A stretch of DNA of 64,000 nt, from positions 18,967 to 82,966 of the forward strand of contig JANWIO010000166.1 in NCBI GenBank assembly GCA_025449835.1. The letters run 5' to 3'. The position numbers and the translations under genes are program-made. Shown one piece after another: positions 6,981 to 41,674 of the stretch. The notes below the pieces were generated by a model. That model had not been told where the DNA came from. It was given only the letters and a program-made list of their open reading frames with translations, and did no database searches. Within the stretch, counting starts at the first letter, position 1, and every line of letters starts with the position of its first letter. This stretch comes from Vampirovibrionales bacterium. Its GTDB lineage: Bacteria > Cyanobacteriota > Vampirovibrionia > Vampirovibrionales > JAGQHJ01.

Positions 6981-7268
6981 TCCAATGCTTAACGCATCCT
7001 AAAATAAAATTGTGCCCAGGGTGAGTCAGTCACCTGCCAAATCTCAAATGAGTCACAACTTCTGTAGAGGTTATCGTCATTTGTTGAATTGACTTTAAAA
7101 ATTTGAAAAAAGAAGGTAACATCCCATTTTTTGGTACTCACAAAACGATTCAAAAATAATTCTTTTTACCTTTTAAGCTTAACAGGCAGCCTTGTTCAAC
7201 AAAGAAGCCCTCCTCTGATAAGAAGGGCTTCATATGAATTTAAGGATAAGCTTCGTAAACTACGCTGC

Positions 7269-7556
7269 TTACTTTACTTTGTTGCTGCTGGTTTTGGTGG
7301 TTTTGGTGGTCATCATGTTTTTAGCCAATTTGGTATGATGACTGGATTTAGCAGCCATTTTGGTGCTGTGATGATGTTTAGCAGCTATCTTATGATGATG
7401 GCTGGTATGTTTGGTTGCCATTTTATGATGGGTTGCAGCAGCATGGTGTTTTGGGGTAGCTGCTTTGTGGTGCGTTGTTGCTGATGTAGCAGCAAAAGCC
7501 CCAGCAGTGGTCAACAAGAAAAGGCTCACGATACCTAATGATAATGCTTTTTTCAT
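7269..7556 (-). CDS. Small secreted histidine-rich protein (about 17 His in a ~72-aa mature chain); putative periplasmic metal-binding protein
   Basis: Start ATG at 7556 with an AAGGAG SD 10 nt upstream. Signal peptide MKKALSLGIVSLFLLTTAGAFAA. Repeated HHK / HHH motifs. Intrinsic terminator just downstream. The overlapping plus-strand ORF 7131-7484 is its antisense shadow. Confidence 0.6.
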   Translation of the reverse strand: MKKALSLGIVSLFLLTTAGAFAATSATTHHKAATPKHHAAATHHKMATKHTSHHHKIAAKHHHSTKMAAKSSHHTKLAKNMMTTKTTKTSSNKVK

Positions 7557-7832
7557 TTTTAAAAACTCCTTTGTCAATTTAATAATGTGATTCAAATAAC
7601 TGCAACGGGTATTTTCCCCAATACCCTAATTCTAGTATTCTCCTAAAATGCTTTTGTCTTACTAACCAAAAGAGCTACTCCTTAGAGTAGTTTTTTCGTT
7701 ACCCCTCACAAACGAAACATCAGAATACATTTACAGAGACAAAAATGATATCAGAGGTCCTTTCACAGCAGTACATGACTCGATTATTCAAGAAGTTCGT
7801 ATTTTATAAAACTTAATATTCTTCAAATTCTA

Positions 7833-12091: not shown

Positions 12092-12751
12092 TTACCCCGA
12101 AAGGGACTCGTGGTAATACCCACCCCCACACACCGACTCTAGAATTTTTAAGAGAAACTGTTGCGTGGCTTCGGCCTGATGAAAAAAGAACTCTTCCTTG
12201 CGATGGTGAAATTTCATCACAGCAGGCTGCACTGGAGAGGCGGGTATATATAAAGAAGCCAATTCATCCTCTAAAACATCCGGATACTCTTGAGAAGGCA
12301 GCATGTAAACATTCTCCTGATAATCTCCTAAGAGGGCGATAATTCTGCCTGTGAACAAAGGATCTCGCCCATTCCGTTGCAAGGCCATGGGTTTAATGTT
12401 TCCTCTGGTGGTAAAGCTAATGGTGTGCCACATCAAATGAAGTATCCCAACTGATCGATCCGCATCAATTTTGGCATAGACGCTTCCTACGGGCACTTCT
12501 CTTTTCATAAATGACTGTTGAAAGCTCACAACGGTCTCTTCCAATTGGCAAAGCAATTGTTCAAACATATCAACGGTACGCTTTTGAGCCGCTTCATGCT
12601 CTTTCAACTGATAAAACATATGGGATGCCATAAAATCAATCTGTTTGCGCAACCCACCCCCAATAGTCTCGTTCTGAACGATTGGGCTCTCTCGCTTCGG
12701 ACACCGGGGTTCTTTGGGAATACCGGTAAAATGTTCGAGATCAAATGCCAA
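12092..12751 (-). CDS. Hypothetical protein (219 aa), co-oriented between ugd-like and CDGSH genes
   Basis: Long ORF with no recognisable motif; tight co-directional spacing suggests operon membership. Confidence 0.4.
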   Translation of the reverse strand: MAFDLEHFTGIPKEPRCPKRESPIVQNETIGGGLRKQIDFMASHMFYQLKEHEAAQKRTVDMFEQLLCQLEETVVSFQQSFMKREVPVGSVYAKIDADRSVGILHLMWHTISFTTRGNIKPMALQRNGRDPLFTGRIIALLGDYQENVYMLPSQEYPDVLEDELASLYIPASPVQPAVMKFHHRKEEFFFHQAEATQQFLLKILESVCGGGYYHESLSG

Positions 12752-14600: not shown

Positions 14601-14620
14601 CTATTTGCAGTTGCAAATAG
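14601..14620. promoter_or_regulatory. Inverted repeat CTATTTGCA-gt-TGCAAATAG, 40 bp upstream of the flagellin-1 start, overlapping a TTGGCAC sigma54-like half site
   Basis: Two 9-bp arms read directly from the sequence. Confidence 0.5.
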
Positions 14621-14659
14621 TACACGGAAGTGCTTTAGCGAGTTAAGGAGAACACGCAA

Positions 14660-15529
14660 GTGCCGATAGTTGTAAATACCAATATTGCATCTTTAATTGC
14701 ACAACAAAATTTATCAGTGAATACCAATAACGTTAATGGTTCACTGGAAAAATTATCCTCCGGCTATAAAATCAATCATGCCTCTGACGATCCAGCAGGA
14801 TTAAGCATCTCAGAAACACTTAATAGCCAGATTTCCGGGATCCAAACAGCTTTGCAAAACGCCCAAGAGGGAAACAGCATTTTGCAAGTTGCAGAAGGAA
14901 CTTTAAGTGTTATCGGTGATAACCTCCAACGGATTCGAGAGCTAACCGTTGAAGCTGCTAACGATACCAACAGTAGCACTCAGCGGGCAGCCCTTGCCAG
15001 TGAAATTAAGGCTCGCTTAAATGACAACCAACGCATGGTTCAAGCGGCACAATTTAATGGCATTAATCTGCTAACGGGATCAGCCGTCAGTGCTCGCCTT
15101 CAAATTGGACCCGATGCAAGCATTGCCGACAATACCATTAACATTGCCAGTGTCCTCGCCACGGCCACAGCAACAGCCATTGGTATTCTGGGAGCTGCCA
15201 CTTCCACAAAATGGGGAACTATCGGCAGCATTAACATTACCAATGGTAGCGTTGCCAGAAGCTTCTTAGGTGAGATAGATAAAGCTATTCAAGCCATCTC
15301 TTCAAGACGCACATTGATTGGTGCTTACCAAAACCAGTTAAGCAGCGCCATCTCCAATTTACAGTTGGGTTCACAGAACCTGACCTCCTCAGAATCCAAT
15401 ATCCGAGATGTGGATGTTGCTGCAGAAAGCGCTAAATTAACCCAATCTCAAATCTTACAACAGGCATCCGTTAGTATCCTGACACAGGCCAATCAAACCC
15501 CCTCAATGGTTCTTAAACTACTACAGTAA
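14660..15529 (+). CDS. fliC: Flagellin (copy 1 of 6, 289 aa, GTG start), the most divergent paralog
   Basis: Conserved flagellin D0/D1 termini (MPIVVNTNIASL... and ...LQQASVSILTQANQTP..LKLLQ). AAGGAG SD 9 nt upstream. Confidence 0.9.
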   Translation: MPIVVNTNIASLIAQQNLSVNTNNVNGSLEKLSSGYKINHASDDPAGLSISETLNSQISGIQTALQNAQEGNSILQVAEGTLSVIGDNLQRIRELTVEAANDTNSSTQRAALASEIKARLNDNQRMVQAAQFNGINLLTGSAVSARLQIGPDASIADNTINIASVLATATATAIGILGAATSTKWGTIGSINITNGSVARSFLGEIDKAIQAISSRRTLIGAYQNQLSSAISNLQLGSQNLTSSESNIRDVDVAAESAKLTQSQILQQASVSILTQANQTPSMVLKLLQ

Positions 15530-15634
15530 CCCTTACATAACCATAAGGAAAGCCCCATGAATACAACCCCCTAAGTTATACCCGCTCCCTCCCATGAACC
15601 TGGTCCATGCCCCAAATCATCACTGAACCAGACT

Positions 15635-16075
15635 CATGTGAGGACCTCCAAAGTTTTCACATGACCCCAGTATCTGCCCACATTAAACCTCAACATTAAC
15701 CCTTCGTGGATGGATACCCAACTCAATAACACCTGTAAAACGCTTCTGTGCATTAGCGTGGCGACCATCAAATTAAAAATAAAGATGCTGTCGACACCAG
15801 CTTCATGACTCAGATACCACTTTACAGGCTCAAAGAACCTCTTTCATGACTGAAAAGGATGAAAGCCTGGGCGCTAAAACGCTCCCGGGATGGGGTTCCC
15901 TACAATAAAATACCGAAACCCTTATATGTGCCTGATTCAGGGTGCCTTGGGCATCATTTTTTGAATCAGCCCCATGTGAGGATTCTTCGGACCTCTCACA
16001 TGACCCGATGTAAAACCGAGTTCGTGCCACTTGGCATGGATGTTTAAACCCAAACCGTTTGAACCGGCTTTACAT
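15635..16075 (+). repeat. Structured intergenic region with two copies of a CATGTGAGGA...CACATGACCC hairpin motif and further inverted repeats
   Basis: Copy A 15635-15667 and copy B 15973-16006 share 10-nt flanks that form 7-8 bp stems. Adjacent inverted repeats CTGATTCA/TGAATCAG (15933-15970) and GATGTAAA/TTTACATC (16007-16075). Confidence 0.5.
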
Positions 16076-16271
16076 CAAATTCATCAAGAATAAACCCCAT
16101 GTCTTATTTGGCATGAATGGATTAGAAATAAAGTTTTGTCTCTATTTCTACCCAGATCAAGCCTTTATAAGGCATTTTGAAAGAACCAACCTAACTCATA
16201 ATACACAACACGTTTGGAAAAACGCCACTTGACAAGGATGGAAAGTGAGAAAAAGCAAAAGGAGTTGAACT

Positions 16272-17114
16272 ATGCCACTCGTTATTAATACAAACGTAAA
16301 TTCATTAAATGCCCAACGGCTCTTGTCACAAAACACGATGAATCTGTCTAAAGATTTAGAGCAATTGGCCTCTGGTTATCGGATTAACCATGCCAGCGAT
16401 GATGCCGCAGGATTACAGATTTCTGAAAATTTTACTGCCCAAATCCGAGGCACTGAACAAGCCATTAACAATGCACAAGATGGCCTTAACCTCTTGTCTG
16501 TTGCAGAAGGTACCTTGAGCGTTGTGGCAAACAACCTGCAACGGATCCGGGAGCTCGCTGTGGAAGCTGCCAACGATGTGAACGGTTCAACCCAAAGATC
16601 TGCTATTAAGCAAGAAATTGATGCCCGAATCGCCGATATCAACCGAATGACCAAAGCAACACAATTTAACGGTGTCAATGTTCTTCAAAAGATCCCTAAT
16701 GTCAGCCTTAGACTACAGGTGGGTGCCAATGGTGTTGCATCACAAGACACCATCAATATCGCTTCTGCACTGGGAAGTGCAACCGCTACGGGACTTGGCC
16801 TTACAGCCACAGCCAATATGATTTCATCTAACAGTAATGCTCGGGCATTTTTGGCCAATGTAGATAGTGCTATGAATAACCTATCCAGCAGAAGAGCGGT
16901 AATCGGTTCATTCCAAAACCGATTACAAAGCGCTATTGATAACTTACAAATTGAAGATCAAAACTTCCAAGCTTCTGAATCTCAAATTAGAGACGTGAAT
17001 GTGGCCAAAGTTACGGCCGATCTTTCTAAAAACCAGATTTTACAACAAGCCTCTGTCAGCATCTTGGCGCAAGCAAATCAATTGCCGGCTCTGGCACTTA
17101 AATTAATCGGGTAA
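16272..17114 (+). CDS. fliC: Flagellin (copy 2 of 6, 280 aa)
   Basis: Flagellin N- and C-terminal helices. About 93% aa identity to copy 3 with many synonymous nucleotide differences. Confidence 0.9.
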   Translation: MPLVINTNVNSLNAQRLLSQNTMNLSKDLEQLASGYRINHASDDAAGLQISENFTAQIRGTEQAINNAQDGLNLLSVAEGTLSVVANNLQRIRELAVEAANDVNGSTQRSAIKQEIDARIADINRMTKATQFNGVNVLQKIPNVSLRLQVGANGVASQDTINIASALGSATATGLGLTATANMISSNSNARAFLANVDSAMNNLSSRRAVIGSFQNRLQSAIDNLQIEDQNFQASESQIRDVNVAKVTADLSKNQILQQASVSILAQANQLPALALKLIG

Positions 17115-17137
17115 GCCTGTTGTTTACCCATTTTTTA
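17109..17137 (+). terminator. Probable intrinsic terminator of flagellin 2
   Basis: GGGTAA-gcctgttgt-TTACCC followed by ATTTTTT; overlaps the stop codon. Confidence 0.55.
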
Positions 17138-17284
17138 TACCCAATCACTTACATAACTTAGAAAGGAGAAACAGATAAGACCTAAAATCACCTCATTTAC
17201 ATTACAGTACGTTACTTGTGTTTAACAAAAATACCTCATTATTAACAAGGATGGAAATAATAAGAAAGCAAAAGGAGTTGTACT

Positions 17285-18127
17285 ATGCCACTCGTTATTA
17301 ATACCAATGTCAATTCATTAAACGCTCAGCGACTCTTGTCGCAAAACACCATGAATCTCTCCAAAGACCTAGAGCAATTAGCCTCTGGTTATCGTATTAA
17401 CCATGCCGGTGATGACGCCGCAGGTCTCCAGATTTCTGAAAATTTTACTGCCCAAATCAAAGGGACAGAGCAAGCCATTAACAACGCACAGGATGGCCTT
17501 AACCTCTTGTCTGTTGCTGAAGGCACCCTAAGTGTTGTTCAGGATAACCTCCAGCGGATCCGCGAGCTAACTGTACAAGCGGCTAACGATGTTAACGGCT
17601 CCTCTCAAAGAACCGCTATTAAGCAAGAAATTGATGCCCGAATCGCCGACATCAACCGAATGACCAAAGCCACACAGTTTAACGGTGTCAATATTCTTAA
17701 AAGCATTGCAAATGTGAGTTTTCGCCTGCAAGTTGGTGCCAATGGTGTTGCATCCCAGGATACCATCAACATTGCATCAGCCTTGGGTAGTGCAACAGCC
17801 ACGGGGCTTGGATTAAAGGCAACGACCAATATGATTTCATCCAACAGCAATGCCCGTGCTTTTTTAGCCAATGTGGATAGTGCCATGAATAACCTATCCA
17901 GCAGAAGAGCGGTTATCGGTTCATTCCAAAACCGACTGCAAAGTGCCGTGAGTAACTTACAAATTGCAGATCAAAACTTCCAGGCCTCTGAATCTCAGAT
18001 CAGAGACGTTAATGTGGCCAAAGTTACTGCCGATCTCTCTAAAAACCAGATTCTGCAACAAGCTTCTGTCAGTATCTTGGCACAAGCAAACCAATTGCCG
18101 GCTTTGGCACTCAAACTTATCGGCTAA
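17285..18127 (+). CDS. fliC: Flagellin (copy 3 of 6, 280 aa)
   Basis: Flagellin termini. Leader shares the AAGGATGGAAA...AAGGAG motif with copy 2. Confidence 0.9.
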   Translation: MPLVINTNVNSLNAQRLLSQNTMNLSKDLEQLASGYRINHAGDDAAGLQISENFTAQIKGTEQAINNAQDGLNLLSVAEGTLSVVQDNLQRIRELTVQAANDVNGSSQRTAIKQEIDARIADINRMTKATQFNGVNILKSIANVSFRLQVGANGVASQDTINIASALGSATATGLGLKATTNMISSNSNARAFLANVDSAMNNLSSRRAVIGSFQNRLQSAVSNLQIADQNFQASESQIRDVNVAKVTADLSKNQILQQASVSILAQANQLPALALKLIG

Positions 18128-18317
18128 TTATCGAGCTCATTTGGCTTAAAACGCCTGTCGATAAATTTATTCTCACCTCATCAATGAGAAAAAAACAACA
18201 AAGGAGAATCTCCCTAATGACTTAAAACAATAATCCATCTGATTGAAACCTCTCACGTGTGGTGCAATCAGCCACTTACTTAAATTTGAATCAGGAAATA
18301 ACAGTAGGAGAAAAACT

Positions 18318-19157
18318 ATGCCACTGGTTATTAATACGAATACTAACTCATTAAACGCACAGCGGCTCTTGTCACAAAACACCATGAATCTCTCCAAAGA
18401 CTTAGAGCAGTTGGCCTCCGGTTATCGAATCAATCACGCATCGGACGACGCGGCAGGGCTACAAATCTCCCAGAATTTGCAGTCTCAATACCGTGGTATT
18501 GAGCAGGCCGTTCGAAACTCACAAGATGGACTTAACCTCTTGTCTGTTGCTGAAGGCACCTTGAGTGTTGTTCAAGATAACCTCCAGCGGATACGAGAAC
18601 TCGCTGTACAAGCAGCCAACGATGTTAACGGTACATCTCAAAGAACCGCTATTAAACAAGAGATAGATGCTCGAATTGCTGACATTAATCGAATGACCAA
18701 AGCCACGCAATTTAACGGTGTTAATATCCTTCAAAGCATCAAAGGCAGCTTCAATCTTGAAGTGGGTGCCAATGGTGCAGCATCCACAAATACCATTAAC
18801 ATTGCTTCAGCACTAGGTAGTGCAACAGCCACAGGGCTTGGACTAAAGGCAACCACCAATATGATTGCCGCCAACAGTAATGCTAGAGCCTTTTTAGGAA
18901 ATGTTGATTCAGCCATTGCAAATGTGTCAACAAGACGTGCAACCATTGGTTCATTCCAAAACCGGCTGCAAAGTGCTATTGCAAACTTACAAATTGCAGA
19001 TCAAAACTTCCAAGCTTCTGCGTCTCAAATTAGAGATGTGAATGTGGCTGCAGTCACTGCGGATCTGTCTCGAAATCAGATTCTGCAGCAGGCTTCCGTC
19101 AGCATTCTGTCTCAAGCAAATCAACTACCGGCCTTAGCACTCAAACTTATCGGATAA
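18318..19157 (+). CDS. fliC: Flagellin (copy 4 of 6, 279 aa); start corrected to ATG 18318
   Basis: MPLVINTN start preceded by a TAGGAG SD. The extra 25 codons of track ORF 18243 lack an RBS and break the paralog alignment. Confidence 0.9.
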   Translation: MPLVINTNTNSLNAQRLLSQNTMNLSKDLEQLASGYRINHASDDAAGLQISQNLQSQYRGIEQAVRNSQDGLNLLSVAEGTLSVVQDNLQRIRELAVQAANDVNGTSQRTAIKQEIDARIADINRMTKATQFNGVNILQSIKGSFNLEVGANGAASTNTINIASALGSATATGLGLKATTNMIAANSNARAFLGNVDSAIANVSTRRATIGSFQNRLQSAIANLQIADQNFQASASQIRDVNVAAVTADLSRNQILQQASVSILSQANQLPALALKLIG

Positions 19158-19315
19158 AAATATACACAAACAATCTTTAATAACAAAATAACCTGAAAGG
19201 AGGCTGATTATCCCGGAAAAATAGAACTCTTAGATTATCTAAATCCACACTTTACAAAACACAAACACTTTTTTTTGGAAGGAAAAGTGAAAAAACAACA
19301 TAAAGGAGTTAAATT

Positions 19316-20155
19316 ATGCCACTTGTTATTAATACAAACGTAAACTCGTTAAATGCACAGCGGCTCTTGTCACAAAACACCATGAATCTCTCCAAAGACT
19401 TAGAGCAGTTGGCCTCCGGTTATCGAATCAACCACGCATCTGACGACGCAGCCGGGCTACAAATCTCCCAGAATCTGCAGTCTCAATACCGTGGTGTCGA
19501 GCAGGCCGTTCGAAACTCACAAGACGGGTTAAACCTCTTGTCTGTTGCTGAAGGTACCCTGAGTGTCGTTCAAGATAACCTCCAGCGGATCAGAGAGCTT
19601 GCTGTACAGGCGGCCAACGATGTGAACGGTACATCTCAAAGAACTGCTATTAAGCAAGAGATGGATGCCCGGATTGCTGACATCAACCGAATGACCAAAG
19701 CAACGCAATTTAACGGTGTTAATATCCTTCAAAGCATCAAAGGAAGCTTTAACATTCAAGTTGGTGCCAATGGTGCAGCATCCACAAACTCCATTAACAT
19801 TGCGTCTGCACTGGGTAGCGCAACAGCCACAGGCCTTGGCTTAAAGGCAACCGCAAATATGATTGCCGCCAACAGTAATGCCAGATCCTTTTTATCCAAT
19901 ATCGATACAGCCATTGCAAACGTCTCAACAAGACGTGCAACCATTGGTTCGTTTCAAAACCGGCTACAAAGTGCTATTGCAAACCTACAAATTGCTGACC
20001 AAAACTACCAAGCTTCTGCATCTCAAATTCGAGATGTGAACGTGGCTTCAGTCACTGCGGATCTGTCTCGAAACCAGATTCTGCAGCAGGCTTCCGTCAG
20101 CATTCTGTCTCAAGCAAATCAACTACCGGCCTTAGCACTCAAACTCATTGGTTAA
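19316..20155 (+). CDS. fliC: Flagellin (copy 5 of 6, 279 aa)
   Basis: Near-identical to copy 4, including a ~78-nt identical tract near the 5' end. Confidence 0.9.
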   Translation: MPLVINTNVNSLNAQRLLSQNTMNLSKDLEQLASGYRINHASDDAAGLQISQNLQSQYRGVEQAVRNSQDGLNLLSVAEGTLSVVQDNLQRIRELAVQAANDVNGTSQRTAIKQEMDARIADINRMTKATQFNGVNILQSIKGSFNIQVGANGAASTNSINIASALGSATATGLGLKATANMIAANSNARSFLSNIDTAIANVSTRRATIGSFQNRLQSAIANLQIADQNYQASASQIRDVNVASVTADLSRNQILQQASVSILSQANQLPALALKLIG

Positions 20156-20180: not shown

Positions 20181-20212
20181 GCAGGAGACCCTTTTGGGGT
20201 CTCCTGTTTTTT
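20181..20212 (+). terminator. Strong rho-independent terminator after flagellin 5
   Basis: CAGGAGACCC-tttt-GGGGTCTCCTG followed by TTTTTT. Confidence 0.85.
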
Positions 20213-20501: not shown

Positions 20502-21341
20502 ATGTCACTAGTCGTGAATACAAACATTTCTTCTTTGAACGCTCAAAGAAACCTTGCTAATAACACAATGAGCCTTAACCGATCGTTAGAGCGGTTATCC
20601 TCCGGTTTACAGATTAACCATGCTTCTGATAACGCTGCAGGGTTACAAATTTCTCAAAATTTGCAAGCCCAAGTTAATGGTGTCAACCAAGCAGTTTCCA
20701 ATGCACAGGATGGCAACAATCTTCTGTCTGTTGCTGAGGGTACCTTGAGTGTTGTTCAAGATAACCTCCAACGGATTCGGGAATTGACTGTGCAAGCCGC
20801 CAACGATGTAAACGGTACATCTCAAAGAACTGCTATTAAGCAAGAGATCGATTCCCGGATTGCTGACATCAACCGAATGACCAAAGCGACCCAATTTAAT
20901 GGTATCAATATCCTTCAAAGCATCAAAGGAAGCTTTAACATTCAAGTTGGTGCCAATGGTGCAGCATCCACAAACTCCATTAACATTGCTTCAGCACTGG
21001 GTAGCGCAACAGCCACGGGGCTTGGGTTAAAAGCAACCACCAATATGGTTGCTGCAAATAGTAATGCTAGGGCCTTTTTGGCCAATGTGGATACGGCCAT
21101 TTCAGCTGTCTCAACCCGAAGAGCAACGATCGGTTCTTATCAAAACCGGTTACAAAGTGCTATCAGTAACTTACAGATTACGTCTCAAAATTTCGCTGCT
21201 TCTGAATCTCAAATCAGAGACGTGAATGTCGCTTCAGAAACGGCAAACTTAACCCGTTCTCAAATTCTGCAGCAAGCTTCTGTAAGCATCTTGGCACAAG
21301 CAAACCAATCATCAGCTCTGGCACTCAAACTCATCGGTTAG
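20502..21341 (+). CDS. fliC: Flagellin (copy 6 of 6, 279 aa), mosaic: divergent N-terminus, central block identical to copy 5
   Basis: MSLVVNTNISSLNAQR... N-terminus. A ~63-nt block (20927-20989) is identical to 19741-19803 of copy 5. Confidence 0.9.
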   Translation: MSLVVNTNISSLNAQRNLANNTMSLNRSLERLSSGLQINHASDNAAGLQISQNLQAQVNGVNQAVSNAQDGNNLLSVAEGTLSVVQDNLQRIRELTVQAANDVNGTSQRTAIKQEIDSRIADINRMTKATQFNGINILQSIKGSFNIQVGANGAASTNSINIASALGSATATGLGLKATTNMVAANSNARAFLANVDTAISAVSTRRATIGSYQNRLQSAISNLQITSQNFAASESQIRDVNVASETANLTRSQILQQASVSILAQANQSSALALKLIG

Positions 21342-37315: not shown

Positions 37316-39961
37316 TTAATCGAGATCCGAAATTTCATTGAAGTGATAAAGCTGGTTAAAATATTGGTGTAATAGCCCTTCTTCTCGGCTCGGTTTCTCT
37401 TTTTGCAGGCTTTCTAAATAGTCTCGAATGGTCACAGATTCAGCAATGTTGCTCAAAGCCCGCTGAATCTCTTTTTCAGGCACTTTTAAATTCCGATCCA
37501 TACAGAGAATTCGAGCCAAATCTTTGAGGCTGGCTTCTAAGAAGGTATCCACCACATCGCCATCAAAATGGCGTTCTGATTCCAACCGAAGGATCTTCAT
37601 CACCCGATCAAAGGGCATTCTGCTTCGATACTGACGCTTTGAGGTGATAGCGTCAAAAACATCAGCAACGGCTAATATTCTGCCGCCTAAGGGAATATGT
37701 TCCCCCTTCAGATTACGAAAATAGCCGCTACCATCAATTTTTTCATGGTGCGCCGCTGCAATATCGGGAATATCGGCCAAATGCTTTTCAAAATGAATGT
37801 TTTTCAAAATGTCATGGGTGTACTGCACGTGTTGTTGGATATGCCGGTATTCATTTTCGGTTAAACGGCCCTCTTTCACCAAAACCTCTTCTTTTACCCC
37901 AATTTTACCAATGTCATGAAGCAAAGCAGCATATCTTAAGGCTTCCATCTCTTGATCTGAAAGATGCATTTTCTCACCAATCAAGACGGCATATTCCATC
38001 ACCCTTTCTGAGTGGCCTGCTGTAATCGGGTCTCTGGCATCAATAGTGGTTGAAAGGGTTTTCACAAAGCTTTCAAAGGTTACTTTCAATTCTCGATAAA
38101 GTTGTGCATTTTCAAGGGCAATCCCTGCACTAGAGGCAATGGCCACCAGCAGCTCTTCATCACTACGTCCAAAGATGGCGTTTTTCTTGTTCAACACCTG
38201 AAAAACCCCAATAATGTCTCCTTTTCGGTTCCGCATTGGCAGGCATAGCATACTTGTGGTTTTATAACCGGTTTGGCGATCCACTTCCGGATTAAATCGG
38301 GGGTCTTCGTAAGCATTTTGAACATTCAAGATCTCGCCAGTTTTGACCACATAGCCTGCAAGACCCTGATGCGCCGGAAAGCGGATTTCTTCGGTTTTAT
38401 CCAATCCAGATGCCAGCCGAGACCAAAGCTCATTGGTTTCGGCATCATATAAAAATACCGTACAACGATCGGCATGAAGGGCTCGCTCGGTTTCTTCCCG
38501 AATGAGTTGTAACAATTTATCCAAATCACGCTCGGCTGCCATGGCTTGCCCCACTTTCAGCAATGACACCAAGAAGGGAAGGCCCTGACCATGCATATGT
38601 TCTAATGCCGCATCCGGTTGTTCGGAATCTCGACTTTCCATGAGCTCCGTTAAGGCCTCCAGCAGAGAATGGCGTTTTTCAAAAATCCGCTCGTGCTTGG
38701 TTCGTTTATTAACAATCTCCTCCCAAGGAATCTCGTGGGTTCTAAAAATCTCATCTTCAATATAGGGCATCAGGTAGAACAAGCCATTTTCCTCAGCCAT
38801 CCGCAAGGCATCTAAAAAGCTGGCCAAGGCAAGTTTTTCGTTTCCGATCTCCTGATAAAATTTACCCAGCTCAAAATGCGATTTTGCAACCTCATCAATC
38901 ATATGCTCCCAACGAAACAGTTCAATGGCCTCACCAATCAGCTCAACGGGCTTTGTTGTATTCTGGGGATCAATGGCAAACTCTACCCAAGCCTGTAACC
39001 GTTTGGACATGGCCAGGCCCTTCTTAAACTGTAGTTTTTGAAAAACGGGCAATACCTCTTTTTCCAGCACTTTCATGGCTTTTTCAAATTCCCGACGGCG
39101 ATAGAGTAAATACACCTCATAAAAGCACGTCATACTATATTGAATTTTAAGATGGCGATTTTTACATTCCTGCCGAGCCTCTTCGATTAAAGTGACTGCT
39201 TCATCCTCTTTACCGCAACGTAAAAATAGACGAATCAACTCGTTTTTCAAAGAAGCTTTTCGTTTTTCATCTTTTAAAGCCGCACAAATCTCTAATGAAC
39301 GCTGCAAATGTTGGTACGCCAGTTCAAAATCTTCGTACAGCAAATGAAGTCGGCCTAAAATTTGGCACGTCACAGCAATTTCATGAATGGGCTCTTTGAG
39401 GTGAGTTTTAATGAGAAGCGCCGATTTTAGGTATCGAATCGCCCGATGAAAATCACCCGTCCGCTCATAATGCACCCCCAGGCTATCATAAAGCTTTGCG
39501 GCTTCAAGCCCTTGGGGATCACAAAAAGTGAGGCCCTGTTTAAAATATTTCAAAGCCGGTCCAAATTGCTCTGCCTGATAAAGCAGTAACCCTCGATAGT
39601 GCAAAAGCCTGGATCGGGCTTCATTCATGCCGGTTAAGGAGCCATGGGTCTCTAAAAGCCCTTCGGCATCTCGAAACATTTTTTCGCTCCTGGCCCGCTC
39701 TTGGGTTGAGCCATACAACCAAGCCAATTCAATCATGGCACAAGTAATCCCCAGGACATTTTTCTGTTGTTGAAAAAGACGAAACGCCTTTTCAACAACA
39801 TCAGTGGCTTGGGGAATCTCTTTTTTAAACCGAAGCACCATGCCTTTTTGTAACGCTTCGGTTGCAGCACCAGGAGGTAAAGCACCTTGCCCTTGTAACG
39901 CAATATTCTGGCTATCTGAAGAATCAATAAACGTGCTCATATCAAAAGGGATCTTTTTCAC
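37316..39961 (-). CDS. Large TPR-GAF-HD-GYP-type c-di-GMP phosphodiesterase-like protein (variant HHEKIDGSGYF motif)
   Basis: N-terminal TPR-like repeats, a central GAF region, and C-terminal HDIGKIGV plus HHEKIDGSGYF (GYF instead of GYP). Confidence 0.8.
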   Translation of the reverse strand: MKKIPFDMSTFIDSSDSQNIALQGQGALPPGAATEALQKGMVLRFKKEIPQATDVVEKAFRLFQQQKNVLGITCAMIELAWLYGSTQERARSEKMFRDAEGLLETHGSLTGMNEARSRLLHYRGLLLYQAEQFGPALKYFKQGLTFCDPQGLEAAKLYDSLGVHYERTGDFHRAIRYLKSALLIKTHLKEPIHEIAVTCQILGRLHLLYEDFELAYQHLQRSLEICAALKDEKRKASLKNELIRLFLRCGKEDEAVTLIEEARQECKNRHLKIQYSMTCFYEVYLLYRRREFEKAMKVLEKEVLPVFQKLQFKKGLAMSKRLQAWVEFAIDPQNTTKPVELIGEAIELFRWEHMIDEVAKSHFELGKFYQEIGNEKLALASFLDALRMAEENGLFYLMPYIEDEIFRTHEIPWEEIVNKRTKHERIFEKRHSLLEALTELMESRDSEQPDAALEHMHGQGLPFLVSLLKVGQAMAAERDLDKLLQLIREETERALHADRCTVFLYDAETNELWSRLASGLDKTEEIRFPAHQGLAGYVVKTGEILNVQNAYEDPRFNPEVDRQTGYKTTSMLCLPMRNRKGDIIGVFQVLNKKNAIFGRSDEELLVAIASSAGIALENAQLYRELKVTFESFVKTLSTTIDARDPITAGHSERVMEYAVLIGEKMHLSDQEMEALRYAALLHDIGKIGVKEEVLVKEGRLTENEYRHIQQHVQYTHDILKNIHFEKHLADIPDIAAAHHEKIDGSGYFRNLKGEHIPLGGRILAVADVFDAITSKRQYRSRMPFDRVMKILRLESERHFDGDVVDTFLEASLKDLARILCMDRNLKVPEKEIQRALSNIAESVTIRDYLESLQKEKPSREEGLLHQYFNQLYHFNEISDLD

Positions 39962-40051: not shown

Positions 40052-41674
40052 ATGGCCCCAAAAGGTCTAAAACAAGATTTCTCCAGATACAAAAAAGCGC
40101 CCTGTAAAAATATCCTCCAATGCCATTATTTCCATTATAATGGTGTGCAGGGTACTGCTAGAAAGATAAAACGATTGTCTTCACCAAATCAAACTGATAA
40201 TAAGGTTCTTCTCATCAGCACACAAAAGAGCCTGATTCAAAAAATATCGGCCCTGATGACCTCTGATTTTCAAGAGTTGGCTCTGGAAATTGCTGAAGCA
40301 GGGAGCAATGGCCTCACTCAAATTTATCATCACCCCCCTCGCTTGATTATTGTGGATAGCACTTTGCCCGATATCAGCGGATTGCAGATTTGTCGGGTTT
40401 TAAAGCATGATCCAGCCCTCCGCAAGCTACCCCTCATGCTTATTACCAAAGCCTTAAAAAAAGAATATGACAGATTGGGTGAACTGACCCTGATTGCAGA
40501 CGCCTTTTTGGAAGAGAAAAAAATCAACACGGCTTTTTGTACGGAAATCAAAATGCTCCTGAACCTGTTTAAGGGACTTGATGCTTCAGAACAACAACAA
40601 ATTCGACTCCTGCAACAAGACGCCGTACAGGTTGAACCCTTAAATCGGTTGGTTCAGCTCCTTGATCAATCCATTACAGAAACCACTTTAATGAATGCCT
40701 TCCAAAAGCTTTTCGACCTCGCCCCCTCAAAAAATATTCTGCATCATATGCTTTTTAGCCTCATGGAAACTGTTTTGGATTACGACGCAGCTGGGATTTT
40801 CTTTAACGATAAAACACGGGATACCCGTTTAATCACGTATCATCTGACCGATCAGGTGGCAATGAAAGATCAACAACTCCAAGAGTGGACAGACCAGGTT
40901 TTTGAGGAGCTCAAAAAGCAATCAAACGATCCTGCTCTGGAAATTCGTCCCTATCGCTATGAAACCATCTCTTCCAACATTTCTCCCGATACACCTGTAA
41001 AAACATCTAGCCTCAAACATCATTATCTTTACCCCTTTTTCATCGAAAACACCCTTGTTGGCGCCGTTGTCTTCTTAAATAAACAAAAAGTCAATTACGA
41101 TATCATCTTTCCCTTTTCTTTGCTGCTCCAGGAAATAAGCACTTTAATGCGGCTAAGGCATTACTATACAGAAGCGGAGATGCTCTCTATCTCCGACCCG
41201 TTAACAGGACTTTATACACACCAGCATTTTAGCTGGTCTCTTGATCGGGAGGTTCGCCAATCCAAACGGCATCAAACGCCCCTCACCCTGGTGATGATCA
41301 GCATCAATGATTTCCGGGAATTAAATACCCAGTGGGGTCATGCAATGGGAGATGAAGCGGTTAAGACCTTAGCACAACATGTGCAACAGAATGTTAGAAG
41401 CATTGACTACCTAGCACGTGCAGGAGGACGCAGCATTTTGGGGCTGTTCCCGAATACCTCTGCAAAAGATACCATGCATGCCCTCAAACGAATCCAAAAG
41501 TGGGTTTCAAGCAATCCGCTGACCTGGAAAGATTCAAAAATCTCTTTCAATTTAAGTATTGGCCTTGTAGAACTCAATGATTCCATCAATAACGCTTCAG
41601 AATTTATTGCCGCTGCAGAATCTGCAGTGGAGAATGCACGACAAAAAGGGGATAATATCGTTAAACACGTTTAG
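40052..41674 (+). CDS. Pseudo-receiver plus degenerate GGDEF protein (GGRSI in place of GGEEF, RxxD I-site retained); likely a c-di-GMP receptor rather than a cyclase
   Basis: Receiver-like region lacks the N-terminal acidic pair (KVLLISTQKS). GGDEF fold (DPLTGLYTHQHF...GHAMGDEAV...RSIDYLARAGGRSILGLFP). Confidence 0.75.
   Translation: MAPKGLKQDFSRYKKAPCKNILQCHYFHYNGVQGTARKIKRLSSPNQTDNKVLLISTQKSLIQKISALMTSDFQELALEIAEAGSNGLTQIYHHPPRLIIVDSTLPDISGLQICRVLKHDPALRKLPLMLITKALKKEYDRLGELTLIADAFLEEKKINTAFCTEIKMLLNLFKGLDASEQQQIRLLQQDAVQVEPLNRLVQLLDQSITETTLMNAFQKLFDLAPSKNILHHMLFSLMETVLDYDAAGIFFNDKTRDTRLITYHLTDQVAMKDQQLQEWTDQVFEELKKQSNDPALEIRPYRYETISSNISPDTPVKTSSLKHHYLYPFFIENTLVGAVVFLNKQKVNYDIIFPFSLLLQEISTLMRLRHYYTEAEMLSISDPLTGLYTHQHFSWSLDREVRQSKRHQTPLTLVMISINDFRELNTQWGHAMGDEAVKTLAQHVQQNVRSIDYLARAGGRSILGLFPNTSAKDTMHALKRIQKWVSSNPLTWKDSKISFNLSIGLVELNDSINNASEFIAAAESAVENARQKGDNIVKHV

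Follow-up and report, generated by a model that had tools for sequence, protein, structure and literature searches.

A lineage-restricted candidate structured RNA, with a predicted two-state module at its head, between two flagellin genes of an uncultured relative of Vampirovibrionia

The flagellin array and its longest spacer

We analyzed a stretch of DNA of 64,000 nt (referred to as the window) that carries six co-oriented flagellin genes, f1 to f6, on the + strand, and focused on the spacer separating f1 from f2, in which a conserved, structured RNA module of approximately 95 nt was recognized. Judging from the encoded proteins, the organism is an uncultured relative of Vampirovibrionia, because the best named relatives of its flagellins come from metagenome-assembled genomes of Cyanobacteriota, Vampirovibrionales and Melainabacteria, and its RecN protein shares 40-41% identity with Vampirovibrio / Vampirovibrionales proteins. 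Sugar-nucleotide and ABC-transporter genes border the array, which comprises the following genes:

14660-15529, + strand: f1 (flagellin-1), 289 amino acids (aa) with a GTG start, from its translation
16272-17114, + strand: flagellin gene f2
17285-18127, + strand: flagellin gene f3
18243-19157, + strand: open reading frame (ORF) of flagellin gene f4, with the conserved ATGCCACT start at 18319
19316-20155, + strand: flagellin gene f5
20502-21341, + strand: flagellin gene f6

The f1-f2 spacer is 742 bp in length and, as stated in the first-pass annotation of this DNA, is the longest of the array (the others are of 170, ~191, 158 and 346 bp). The statement that only short ORFs occur within it was also correct: they encode 45-66 aa, and none is conserved in relatives.

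The f1 gene encodes a distinct type of flagellin, whose orthologs in Vampirovibrionia-like contigs show 60-68% identity; the GTG start codon of the window gene is aligned with the ATG of the relatives (alignment A6). The orthologs adjoin a divergently oriented UDP-glucose dehydrogenase gene in six of these contigs (L004, L005, L006, L008, L009 and L011), while in L015 the gene located 5′ of f1 is truncated by the contig end. In every contig of sufficient extent, a long spacer separates f1 from a downstream flagellin gene of the f2 type; L005 has a single flagellin gene 3′ of the spacer.

Architecture of the module

The first-pass annotation had proposed that the spacer contains a duplicated hairpin of the form CATGTGAGGA-N13/14-CACATGACCC. 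Both copies were found where it placed them (15635-15667 and 15973-16006, both on the + strand), as were their stems of 7-8 bp (CATGTGA/TCACATG of 7 bp and CATGTGAG/CTCACATG of 8 bp, extended to 12 and 9 bp by G-U pairs). The duplication thus stands, although the repeated unit is larger than the CATGTGAGGA hairpin alone. Each copy of the motif is the second hairpin (P2) of a whole two-hairpin module of ~95 nt, read on the + strand, in which the order of elements is (i) segment X, (ii) hairpin P1, (iii) a linker of 2-3 nt, (iv) strand A′, (v) a variable loop and (vi) segment B. The consensus of the conserved parts is as follows:

Segment X, + strand: C/U-rich, CCCUCnyAUGa (DNA CCCTCnyATGa)
Hairpin P1, + strand: 8-11 bp, CTGGTYCA/TGAAYCAG (RNA CUGGUUCA/UGAACCAG; DNA CTGGTTCA ... 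TGAACCAG)
Strand A′, + strand: CATGTGAGG (RNA CAUGUGAGGA; in the window CATGTGAGGA), the common strand of two alternative helices
Segment B, + strand: yUUCACAUG (DNA yTTCACATG), with the core TCACATG

Pairing of A′ with B forms P2, which together with an inner extension reaches 9-14 bp and a predicted -12.5 to -21 kcal/mol. Strand A′ is equally complementary to X, and the X:A′ pairing lengthens P1 to a hairpin of ~19 bp; it is this extended form of P1 that RNAalifold returned as the consensus structure. Conserved positions are located in the stems, whereas the loops of P1 (9-30 nt) and P2 vary in both length and sequence (alignment A5). With respect to the features expected of a riboswitch, two competing folds are present, and no aptamer-like core is visible among the conserved positions.

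The window contains two copies of the module in the same orientation, 338 nt apart. The bit scores given below refer to a covariance model, R1, built from nine instances of the module.

15583-15675, + strand: module copy 1 (73.9 bits)
Parts of copy 1: X, 15588-15597 (CCTCCCATGA); P1, 15600-15607/15624-15631 (CTGGTCCA/TGAACCAG); A′, 15635-15644 (CATGTGAGGA); B, 15656-15663 (TTCACATG)
15915-16014, + strand: module copy 2 (76.8 bits)
Parts of copy 2: X, 15920-15929; P1, 15932-15939/15962-15969 (CTGATTCA/TGAATCAG); A′, 15973-15982; B, 15995-16002 (CTCACATG)

The CTGATTCA/TGAATCAG repeat, which had been noticed beside the second hairpin with both ends placed one base off, is therefore real and equals P1 of copy 2, while the corresponding hairpin of copy 1 (CTGGTCCA/TGAACCAG) had been missed. 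The minimum free energy (MFE) fold of copy 1 consists of P1 and P2 (-19.6 kcal/mol), and its two conformers have -18.6 and -19.6 kcal/mol. In copy 2 the long X+P1 hairpin has the minimum free energy (-33.7 kcal/mol, z -3.5), and inverted repeat I1 spans 15917-15939 and 15962-15984.

A search for the pattern CATGTGAGGA-N(10-18)-CACATGACCC returned exactly two matches in the window, and none of 100 dinucleotide shuffles contained any match. Neither half of the motif is repeated beyond chance elsewhere in the 64 kb.

Conservation in related genomes

Ten instances of the module were identified in nine genomes: two in the window and one in each of eight contigs of relatives (L004, L005, L006, L008, L009, L011, L014 and L015; the instance of L009 is identical to that of L010 and was counted once). 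In these relatives every instance is located 50-190 nt 3′ of the f1 stop codon. The L014 instance, located between two flagellin genes, was detected by a degenerate pattern scan of a metagenome collection that was blind to gene context, and the L015 instance, which had been left out of R1, was recovered by this model with 52.6 bits (E ~1e-14), 100 nt past the f1 stop codon. When 197 kb of related loci were searched with R1, only the known sites were found.

Nucleotide similarity between the spacers (blastn) is confined to a block of ~100 nt near their 5′ end, which corresponds to the module region; outside the module the spacer sequence is not conserved between genomes. A tblastx comparison between the spacers revealed no similarity.

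Covariation, strand bias and alternative folding

On the alignment of the ten sequences, the helices P1+P2 show 97.5% pairing and 6 pairs in which both partners have changed, and the alternative X+P1 helix shows 93.3% pairing and 8 such pairs. Shifting the partner by 1-3 columns lowered the pairing to 20-41%, and to 20-38% when P1+P2 are considered alone. The values observed for P1+P2 were reached by 0 or 1 of 500 shuffles, and almost no shuffle attained those of X+P1. An independent alignment of eight sequences, made with MAFFT only, gave the same outcome for both helices. Within P2, position 4 is occupied by G-C, G-U or A-U, position 5 by U-A, U-G or C-G, and position 6 by G-C or A-U. In L015, a change of A to G at position 2 of A′ is accompanied by U to C changes of its partners in both X and B. 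Such covariation and pairing statistics, derived from ten related sequences, are supportive rather than final.

The pairing is also strand-specific. The alignment contains 19 G-U cells, which become mismatches on the opposite strand, and for this reason pairing falls from 97.5% on the + strand to 86.8% on the - strand. The R1 scores follow the same direction (52-82 bits on the + strand versus 10-41 bits on the - strand).

Folds constrained to X:A′ or to A′:B have total energies of -19 to -40 kcal/mol and differ from each other by -4.5 to +4.3 kcal/mol, the gap being at most 1 kcal/mol in five of the ten instances. Without constraints, the MFE structure is P1+P2 in seven instances and the X form in two, while in L005 the MFE and centroid structures disagree by 0.2 kcal/mol. 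Since A′ has two mutually exclusive partners, X and B, the module looks like a conserved bistable element, i.e. a predicted two-state RNA switch.

Structure of the spacer beyond the module

The predicted folding of eight complete spacers was compared with that of dinucleotide shuffles (z-scores for the + and - strands):

Window f1-f2 spacer, 15530-16271, + strand: 742 nt, MFE -203.6 kcal/mol; + strand -5.7 to -6.0, - strand -3.4
Spacer of L004, 802 nt: + strand -7.1, - strand -3.4
Spacer of L005, 1042 nt: + strand -13.1, - strand -4.1
Spacer of L008, 843 nt: + strand -6.4, - strand -4.6
Spacer of L009, 836 nt: + strand -10.6, - strand -2.2
Spacer of L011, 444 nt: + strand -7.8, - strand -3.2
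Spacer of L014, 780 nt: + strand -6.9, - strand -3.8
Spacer of L015, 804 nt: + strand -5.0, - strand -0.2

On the + strand, all eight are predicted to be much more strongly folded than their shuffles; flagellin coding sequences used as controls gave z-scores of -0.1 to -2.8. After deletion of the module and of the f2 leader, the signal persisted in L005 (-9.2 versus -3.7), L009 (-4.3 versus -0.7) and pieces of the window spacer, and was weak in L004. Among 426 windows of 300 nt covering the 64 kb, the most extreme is 15901-16200 on the + strand (z -8.6; background -0.58 +/- 1.37). Local folding depicts the spacers as almost gap-free chains of stable hairpin domains. In addition to the module, the window spacer contains the following structures:

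15941-15962, + strand: terminator-like GC hairpin (GGTGCC TTG GGCATC) followed by T6, nested in the P1 loop of copy 2, from consensus scans
16007-16076, + strand: third hairpin, GATGTAAAACCG/CGGCTTTACATC (inverted repeat I6, 12 nt), enclosing two inner hairpins
16099-16175, + strand: further stable hairpin domain (local fold of -25.6 kcal/mol) with inverted repeat I2 (16110-16133 with 16140-16163)

The terminator-like hairpin is the first site of this kind 3′ of f1 and, among all instances of the module, a hairpin with T6 occurs only in this P1 loop. The third hairpin agrees to within one base with an inverted repeat in the first-pass annotation (16007-16018/16065-16076, 92% complementary); it is part of a local domain at spacer positions 465-560 (-29.5 kcal/mol), and is not conserved in L004 (alignment A1).

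The window spacer is also rich in the tetranucleotide CATG, which occurs 12 times versus ~4 expected from the dinucleotide content (16 per kb, compared with 4.4 per kb in the remaining window sequence). This excess was not seen in the spacers of the relatives.

Searches for known elements and further copies

The module was compared with known RNA families. A scan of the 64-kb window against Rfam 15 yielded nothing at the gathering score; at E<=10, the region 15400-16400 gave only RsaF (23.8 bits, threshold 60) and SNORD94 (11.9 bits, threshold 60), and the only match in 62 kb of related loci was a tRNA located elsewhere. No Rfam family was thus assigned to the spacer in the window or in its relatives, and a search for tRNA and tmRNA genes found none.

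The spread of the motif as a dispersed repeat, of the repetitive extragenic palindrome (REP) type, had been pointed out beforehand as a result that would speak against the candidate non-coding RNA. No such dispersal was seen in the window, in the 197 kb of related loci (where R1 found no copy elsewhere) or in the scans of species genomes, metagenomes and viral contigs, and a dispersed REP/BIME or MITE-like repeat was rejected: just two copies occur in 64 kb, both within the f1-f2 spacer. An exact scan of 185,579 species genomes produced one chance match (L001), at an unrelated gene junction of a GC-rich Planctomycetota genome. The degenerate metagenome scan gave one true match (L014), two further matches being attributed to chance (L012, a terminator plus ribosome-binding site, and L013, a coding region resembling a tRNA synthetase gene), and viral contigs gave none. 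No spacer sequence is repeated elsewhere in its own locus, save for an 86% identical copy of the f2 leader.

Several other identities were considered and rejected: (i) a flagellin pseudogene, because a tblastn search of the spacer with the six flagellins yielded no collinear matches and a best E of 0.07 over 29 residues; (ii) an intrinsic terminator or classical attenuator, since P2 is followed by A/C-rich sequence in all ten instances; (iii) a CsrA sponge of the CsrB/RsmZ type, as GGA was observed 124 times versus 109 expected over nine spacers (~1.9 per 100 nt), with a mean unpaired probability of 0.22-0.39, below the average of all triplets; (iv) pairing with the f1 5′ untranslated region (UTR), as in icaR or hbs, because the RNAduplex z-scores were -0.7 to +1.5 in seven of eight genomes (-2.7 in L011 only), and the best duplexes between the module and the f1 initiation region use different segments in each genome; and (v) a conserved small protein, since tblastx was blank and no frame is open through the module in all instances. 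An excess of the 4-mers AAGG and AGGA in the spacers appears to come mainly from motifs of the f2 leader.

Interpretation

The proposal of a candidate non-coding RNA, made in the first-pass annotation, gains support from the conserved position in nine genomes, the compensatory changes, the strand-specific G-U pairs and the predicted folding of the whole spacer. By these comparisons, the module is an orphan structured-RNA motif: it is lineage-restricted, duplicated in the window genome, and matches no described family. As for its role, the best explanation, to which we give an even chance, is that of a new cis-acting structured RNA in the 3′ region of f1, in which a two-state module heads a long, folded, untranslated RNA. 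The module and the structured RNA would be transcribed from the f1 promoter, as the 3′ UTR of f1 or as f1-f2 intercistronic RNA. The module would act in cis, and competition between X and B for A′ would set the fate of the transcript, i.e. the stability or processing of its 3′ end, or the extent of transcription towards f2-f6. Because conservation concerns the stems and not the loops, a small ligand is a less likely trigger than a protein or the kinetics of folding. Downstream of the module there would follow 0.45-1 kb of densely folded, fast-evolving untranslated RNA between f1 and f2. A strong hairpin behind the f1 stop codon ends 3-5 nt before the module in L004 and L005, too close for the module to have its own promoter; a cis-acting 3′ UTR or intergenic element is therefore favored over a free-standing small RNA (sRNA) gene.

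Several observations weigh against this explanation. The lack of a U tract in P2 distinguishes the module from a classical attenuator; both folds keep the GAGG of A′ paired, so that neither a Shine-Dalgarno nor a CsrA site is exposed; and the loops, not being conserved, reveal no ligand pocket. Pairing with the f1 5′ UTR was not predicted, and a terminator-like site after the module is found in the window only, the relatives having none. In L004, L005, L009 and L014, f1 transcription could in fact terminate at the strong hairpins right behind the stop codon of this gene, and the module would then lie on a separate transcript. Finally, the sample consists of ten sequences of one lineage, whose relatedness inflates the shuffle statistics.

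If f1 transcription did end at such hairpins (L011 also has one), the spacer could encode a free-standing, trans-acting non-coding RNA (an sRNA or a large RNA) with its own promoter behind the f1 terminator hairpin, serving, for example, as a sponge or scaffold for a post-transcriptional regulator of flagellar genes. The high, strand-biased structure of the whole spacer fits this idea, as do the CsrA-type GGA hairpins in all flagellin leaders of this locus, which suggest that an RNA-binding regulator is probably active. However, the gap of 3-5 nt between hairpin and module in L004 and L005, the lack of a conserved promoter-like sequence upstream of X, the GGA content (not enriched, and paired in both folds within the module) and the absence of sequence conservation outside the module between genomes make this rather unlikely. 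Still less probable is a processive antitermination or read-through element, comparable to put, EAR or canT, that would allow polymerase coming from f1 to pass the intrinsic terminators of the array. Two adjacent hairpins heading a long structured RNA would suit such an element, terminator-like sites are present downstream (15941-15962, 17109-17129 and 20181-20207), and long structured RNAs with this activity are known, e.g. the 452-nt canT of Tn916, put and EAR (PMC11658703). On the other hand, no Rfam family was matched, EAR included, terminator-like sites behind the module are absent from the relatives, only one flagellin gene follows the spacer in L005, and the f2-type genes have conserved leaders of their own.

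The imperfect inverted repeat of ~20 bp with a third related segment, and the two direct copies 338 bp apart in the window, could also be viewed at the level of DNA, as the ends of a hairpin-ended mobile remnant (an IS200/IS605-like PATE, REP or MITE) or as a palindrome for recombination or protein binding; hairpins of single-stranded DNA likewise accept G-T pairs. We consider this improbable: the position is fixed and orthologous in 9 genomes with flanking flagellins of only 60-68% identity, the searchable sequence yielded no other true copy, genes for a transposase or recombinase are absent from the vicinity, the arm spacing of 9-30 nt is unlike that of a dimeric DNA-binding site, and compensatory changes preserve the hairpins. 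We place marginally less trust in the view that P2 is the initiation region of a small ORF, with GAGGA as the Shine-Dalgarno sequence and the conserved ATG of the 3′ arm as the start codon. GAGG and ATG are nearly invariant, and an A-rich stretch follows the ATG in most instances; yet the frames read from the sequences at this ATG comprise 8-46 codons and are mutually dissimilar, tblastx between the spacers was blank and no frame is open in all instances, L008 has no ATG at this site, and the distance from Shine-Dalgarno to ATG is mostly 13-17 nt. Conservation of the ATG is explained by the self-complementary CATG at the stem base, and GAGG takes part in a helix in either fold. That the repeats and hairpins arose by chance in a long spacer without function, most of whose sequence is indeed not conserved, is scarcely credible, given the absence of the motif pair from all 100 shuffles, the independent instance at E ~1e-14, the covariation, and the most extreme structure z-score of the window, a property of the spacer that recurs in 8 of 8 complete spacers.

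A bolder reading, which we regard as possible rather than probable, is that the whole f1-f2 spacer of 0.45-1 kb represents a new class of large structured RNA, headed by a switch, that controls the relative output of flagellin paralogs in these non-photosynthetic relatives of cyanobacteria. It might, e.g., cause antitermination or control read-through without the help of a protein, or else offer a scaffold to a flagellar regulator that binds RNA.

Comparison with known systems

Three-segment attenuators and riboswitch platforms resemble the module in having one strand (here A′) with two competing partners, both helices covarying and near-equal in energy. They differ in that the module has no U tract, no released Shine-Dalgarno sequence and no conserved unpaired nucleotides, and follows a stop codon instead of occupying a 5′ leader.

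Long structured regions past the stop codon of a highly expressed gene, as here, are also known from the 3′ UTRs of icaR and hbs. The 3′ UTR of icaR in Staphylococcus aureus carries the anti-Shine-Dalgarno motif UCCCC (PMC3868564), and an interaction between the 5′ and 3′ UTRs has been described for hbs of Bacillus subtilis (PMC5737220). The module region likewise begins with a C/U-rich tract resembling an anti-Shine-Dalgarno sequence (CUCCCUCCC); in contrast to icaR and hbs, this C-rich tract has a conserved partner within the module, and there is no consistent pairing with the f1 initiation region. Processive antitermination RNAs include put of phage HK022 (two stem-loops), EAR of B. subtilis and the 452-nt canT of Tn916 (PMC11658703). 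The likeness lies in a cis-encoded structured RNA within a co-oriented array containing intrinsic terminators, with adjacent hairpins of conserved stems and a long body. The module differs by its lack of an Rfam match and by the relatives that have no terminator-like site after it; antitermination itself is defined by function.

REP/BIME elements are, like the module, imperfect palindromes situated just 3′ of a gene, where they could shield the upstream mRNA from 3′ exonucleases; unlike the module, which occupies a single locus per contig examined, they are dispersed in tens to hundreds of copies. CsrB and RsmZ share with the f1-f2 spacer a multi-hairpin RNA in a flagellin context, in which all flagellin leaders have CsrA-like GGA hairpins. 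They differ in that GGA is not enriched in the spacer (~1.9 per 100 nt, compared with ~6 per 100 nt in CsrB) and that in P2 this triplet is paired whichever fold forms.

Bacteria with multiple flagellins must set the amount of each of them and do so, as far as is known, through promoters or 5′ leaders (sigma factors, CsrA/FliW). If functional, the module would add a 3′ or intercistronic control point to flagellin expression. At present it is an orphan RNA motif, like many others obtained by comparative genomics, for which a covariance model is now ready. A literature search for RNA elements of Melainabacteria flagellin genes retrieved nothing relevant and, to our knowledge, no RNA regulation has been described in relatives of Vampirovibrionia/Melainabacteria.

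Flagellin leaders, terminators and neighboring features

The 3′ end of the spacer is formed by the f2 leader, which belongs to f2 and not to the module:

16226-16271, + strand: f2 leader, comprising hairpin CACTT/AAGTG with AAGGATGGA in its loop and then the Shine-Dalgarno sequence AAGGAG (16259-16264)

The same arrangement is found before f3, f5 and the f2 genes of relatives (alignment A3), and an 86% identical copy of this leader is present at 17242-17284. The f2-type genes have their own conserved leader ~100-130 nt upstream of the ATG. In these leaders, a hairpin with GGA in its loop (e.g. CACUUUC-UUUGGAAG-GAAAGUG) precedes the AAGGAG Shine-Dalgarno sequence by ~20 nt, a layout that we take to be the two-site arrangement of the CsrA-regulated hag and flaA leaders. 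It was observed at the following sites:

GGA-loop leaders in the window: 16226-16264 (f2), 17236-17280 (f3), 19262-19312 (f5)
GGA-loop leaders in relatives: f2 leaders of L004, L005, L008, L009, L014 and L015 (alignment A3)

The leader of f1 (14615-14659 in the window) is near-invariant in eight genomes (the window, L004, L005, L006, L008, L009, L011 and L015; alignment A6). It consists of a small hairpin with UACA(A/C/U)GGA(A/U)GUA in the loop, followed by GCGAGUUAAGGAGAACACGCA and then AUG, and two more motifs, AAACAGGA/AAACAGGGAA, are located ~110-140 nt upstream. The loop presumably matches the consensus RUACARGGAUGU selected for CsrA in vitro (SELEX), which suggests that f1 may be under translational control of the CsrA/FliW type in this lineage. 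A sigma-54 promoter upstream of f1 (TGGCAC...TTGCA) was considered and rejected, as the spacing from GG to GC is, by eye, 8 or 14 nt and not 10.

The sequence GAAAGGAG(G/A) is conserved ~80-110 nt upstream of the f2-type start codons, and is preceded at 10-20 nt by a CGATAA/ACATAA motif resembling the -10 element of sigma-28 promoters. We assume that GAAAGGAG(G/A) equals STAB-SD, the 5′ stabilizer of the Bacillus thuringiensis cryIIIA mRNA. The sites are:

GAAAGGAG(G/A) in the window: ~17163-17170 (f3), 18190-18197 (f4), 19195-19203 (f5)
GAAAGGAG(G/A) in relatives: ~100 nt before the f2 ATG in L004, L005, L008, L009, L011, L014 and L015

The version belonging to f2 of the window is degenerate (TTTGAAAGAACC, ~16177-16188).

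Canonical intrinsic terminators (a GC hairpin plus T run) follow f2 (17109-17129, + strand) and f5 (20181-20207, + strand). The window f1 has no intrinsic terminator directly after its stop codon, and in L004, L005, L009 and L014 a very stable hairpin without a T run follows f1.

A protein of 219 aa without a Pfam match is encoded at 12092-12751 (- strand). Predicted proteins of 217-221 aa, also without a Pfam match, are encoded at the same site beside the UDP-glucose dehydrogenase/f1 pair in L004, L005, L006, L008 and L009, the correspondence being one of size and position only. The closest non-paralogous flagellin of the f2 type (P0006, 69% identity; L002, 1-9700, and L003) is encoded by a lone gene, and mobile and defence genes abound around it (for integrase, DNA methylase, ParB-like and TIR-domain proteins and DDE transposase); this locus contains neither an f1 gene nor the module.

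The second and third most extreme structure z-scores of the window were found outside the array. One (7201-7500, - strand, z -5.8) is in the region of an ORF of 108 aa (7269-7595, - strand), whose product has a signal-peptide-like N terminus and a repetitive body rich in His, Lys and Ala (HHKAATPKHHAAATHHK...), and which is followed by a strong terminator hairpin. The other (39601-39900, + strand, z -5.4) is located near the 5′ end of a GAF/HD-domain gene of the - strand (37316-39961), opposite a GGDEF response-regulator gene of the + strand starting at 40052.

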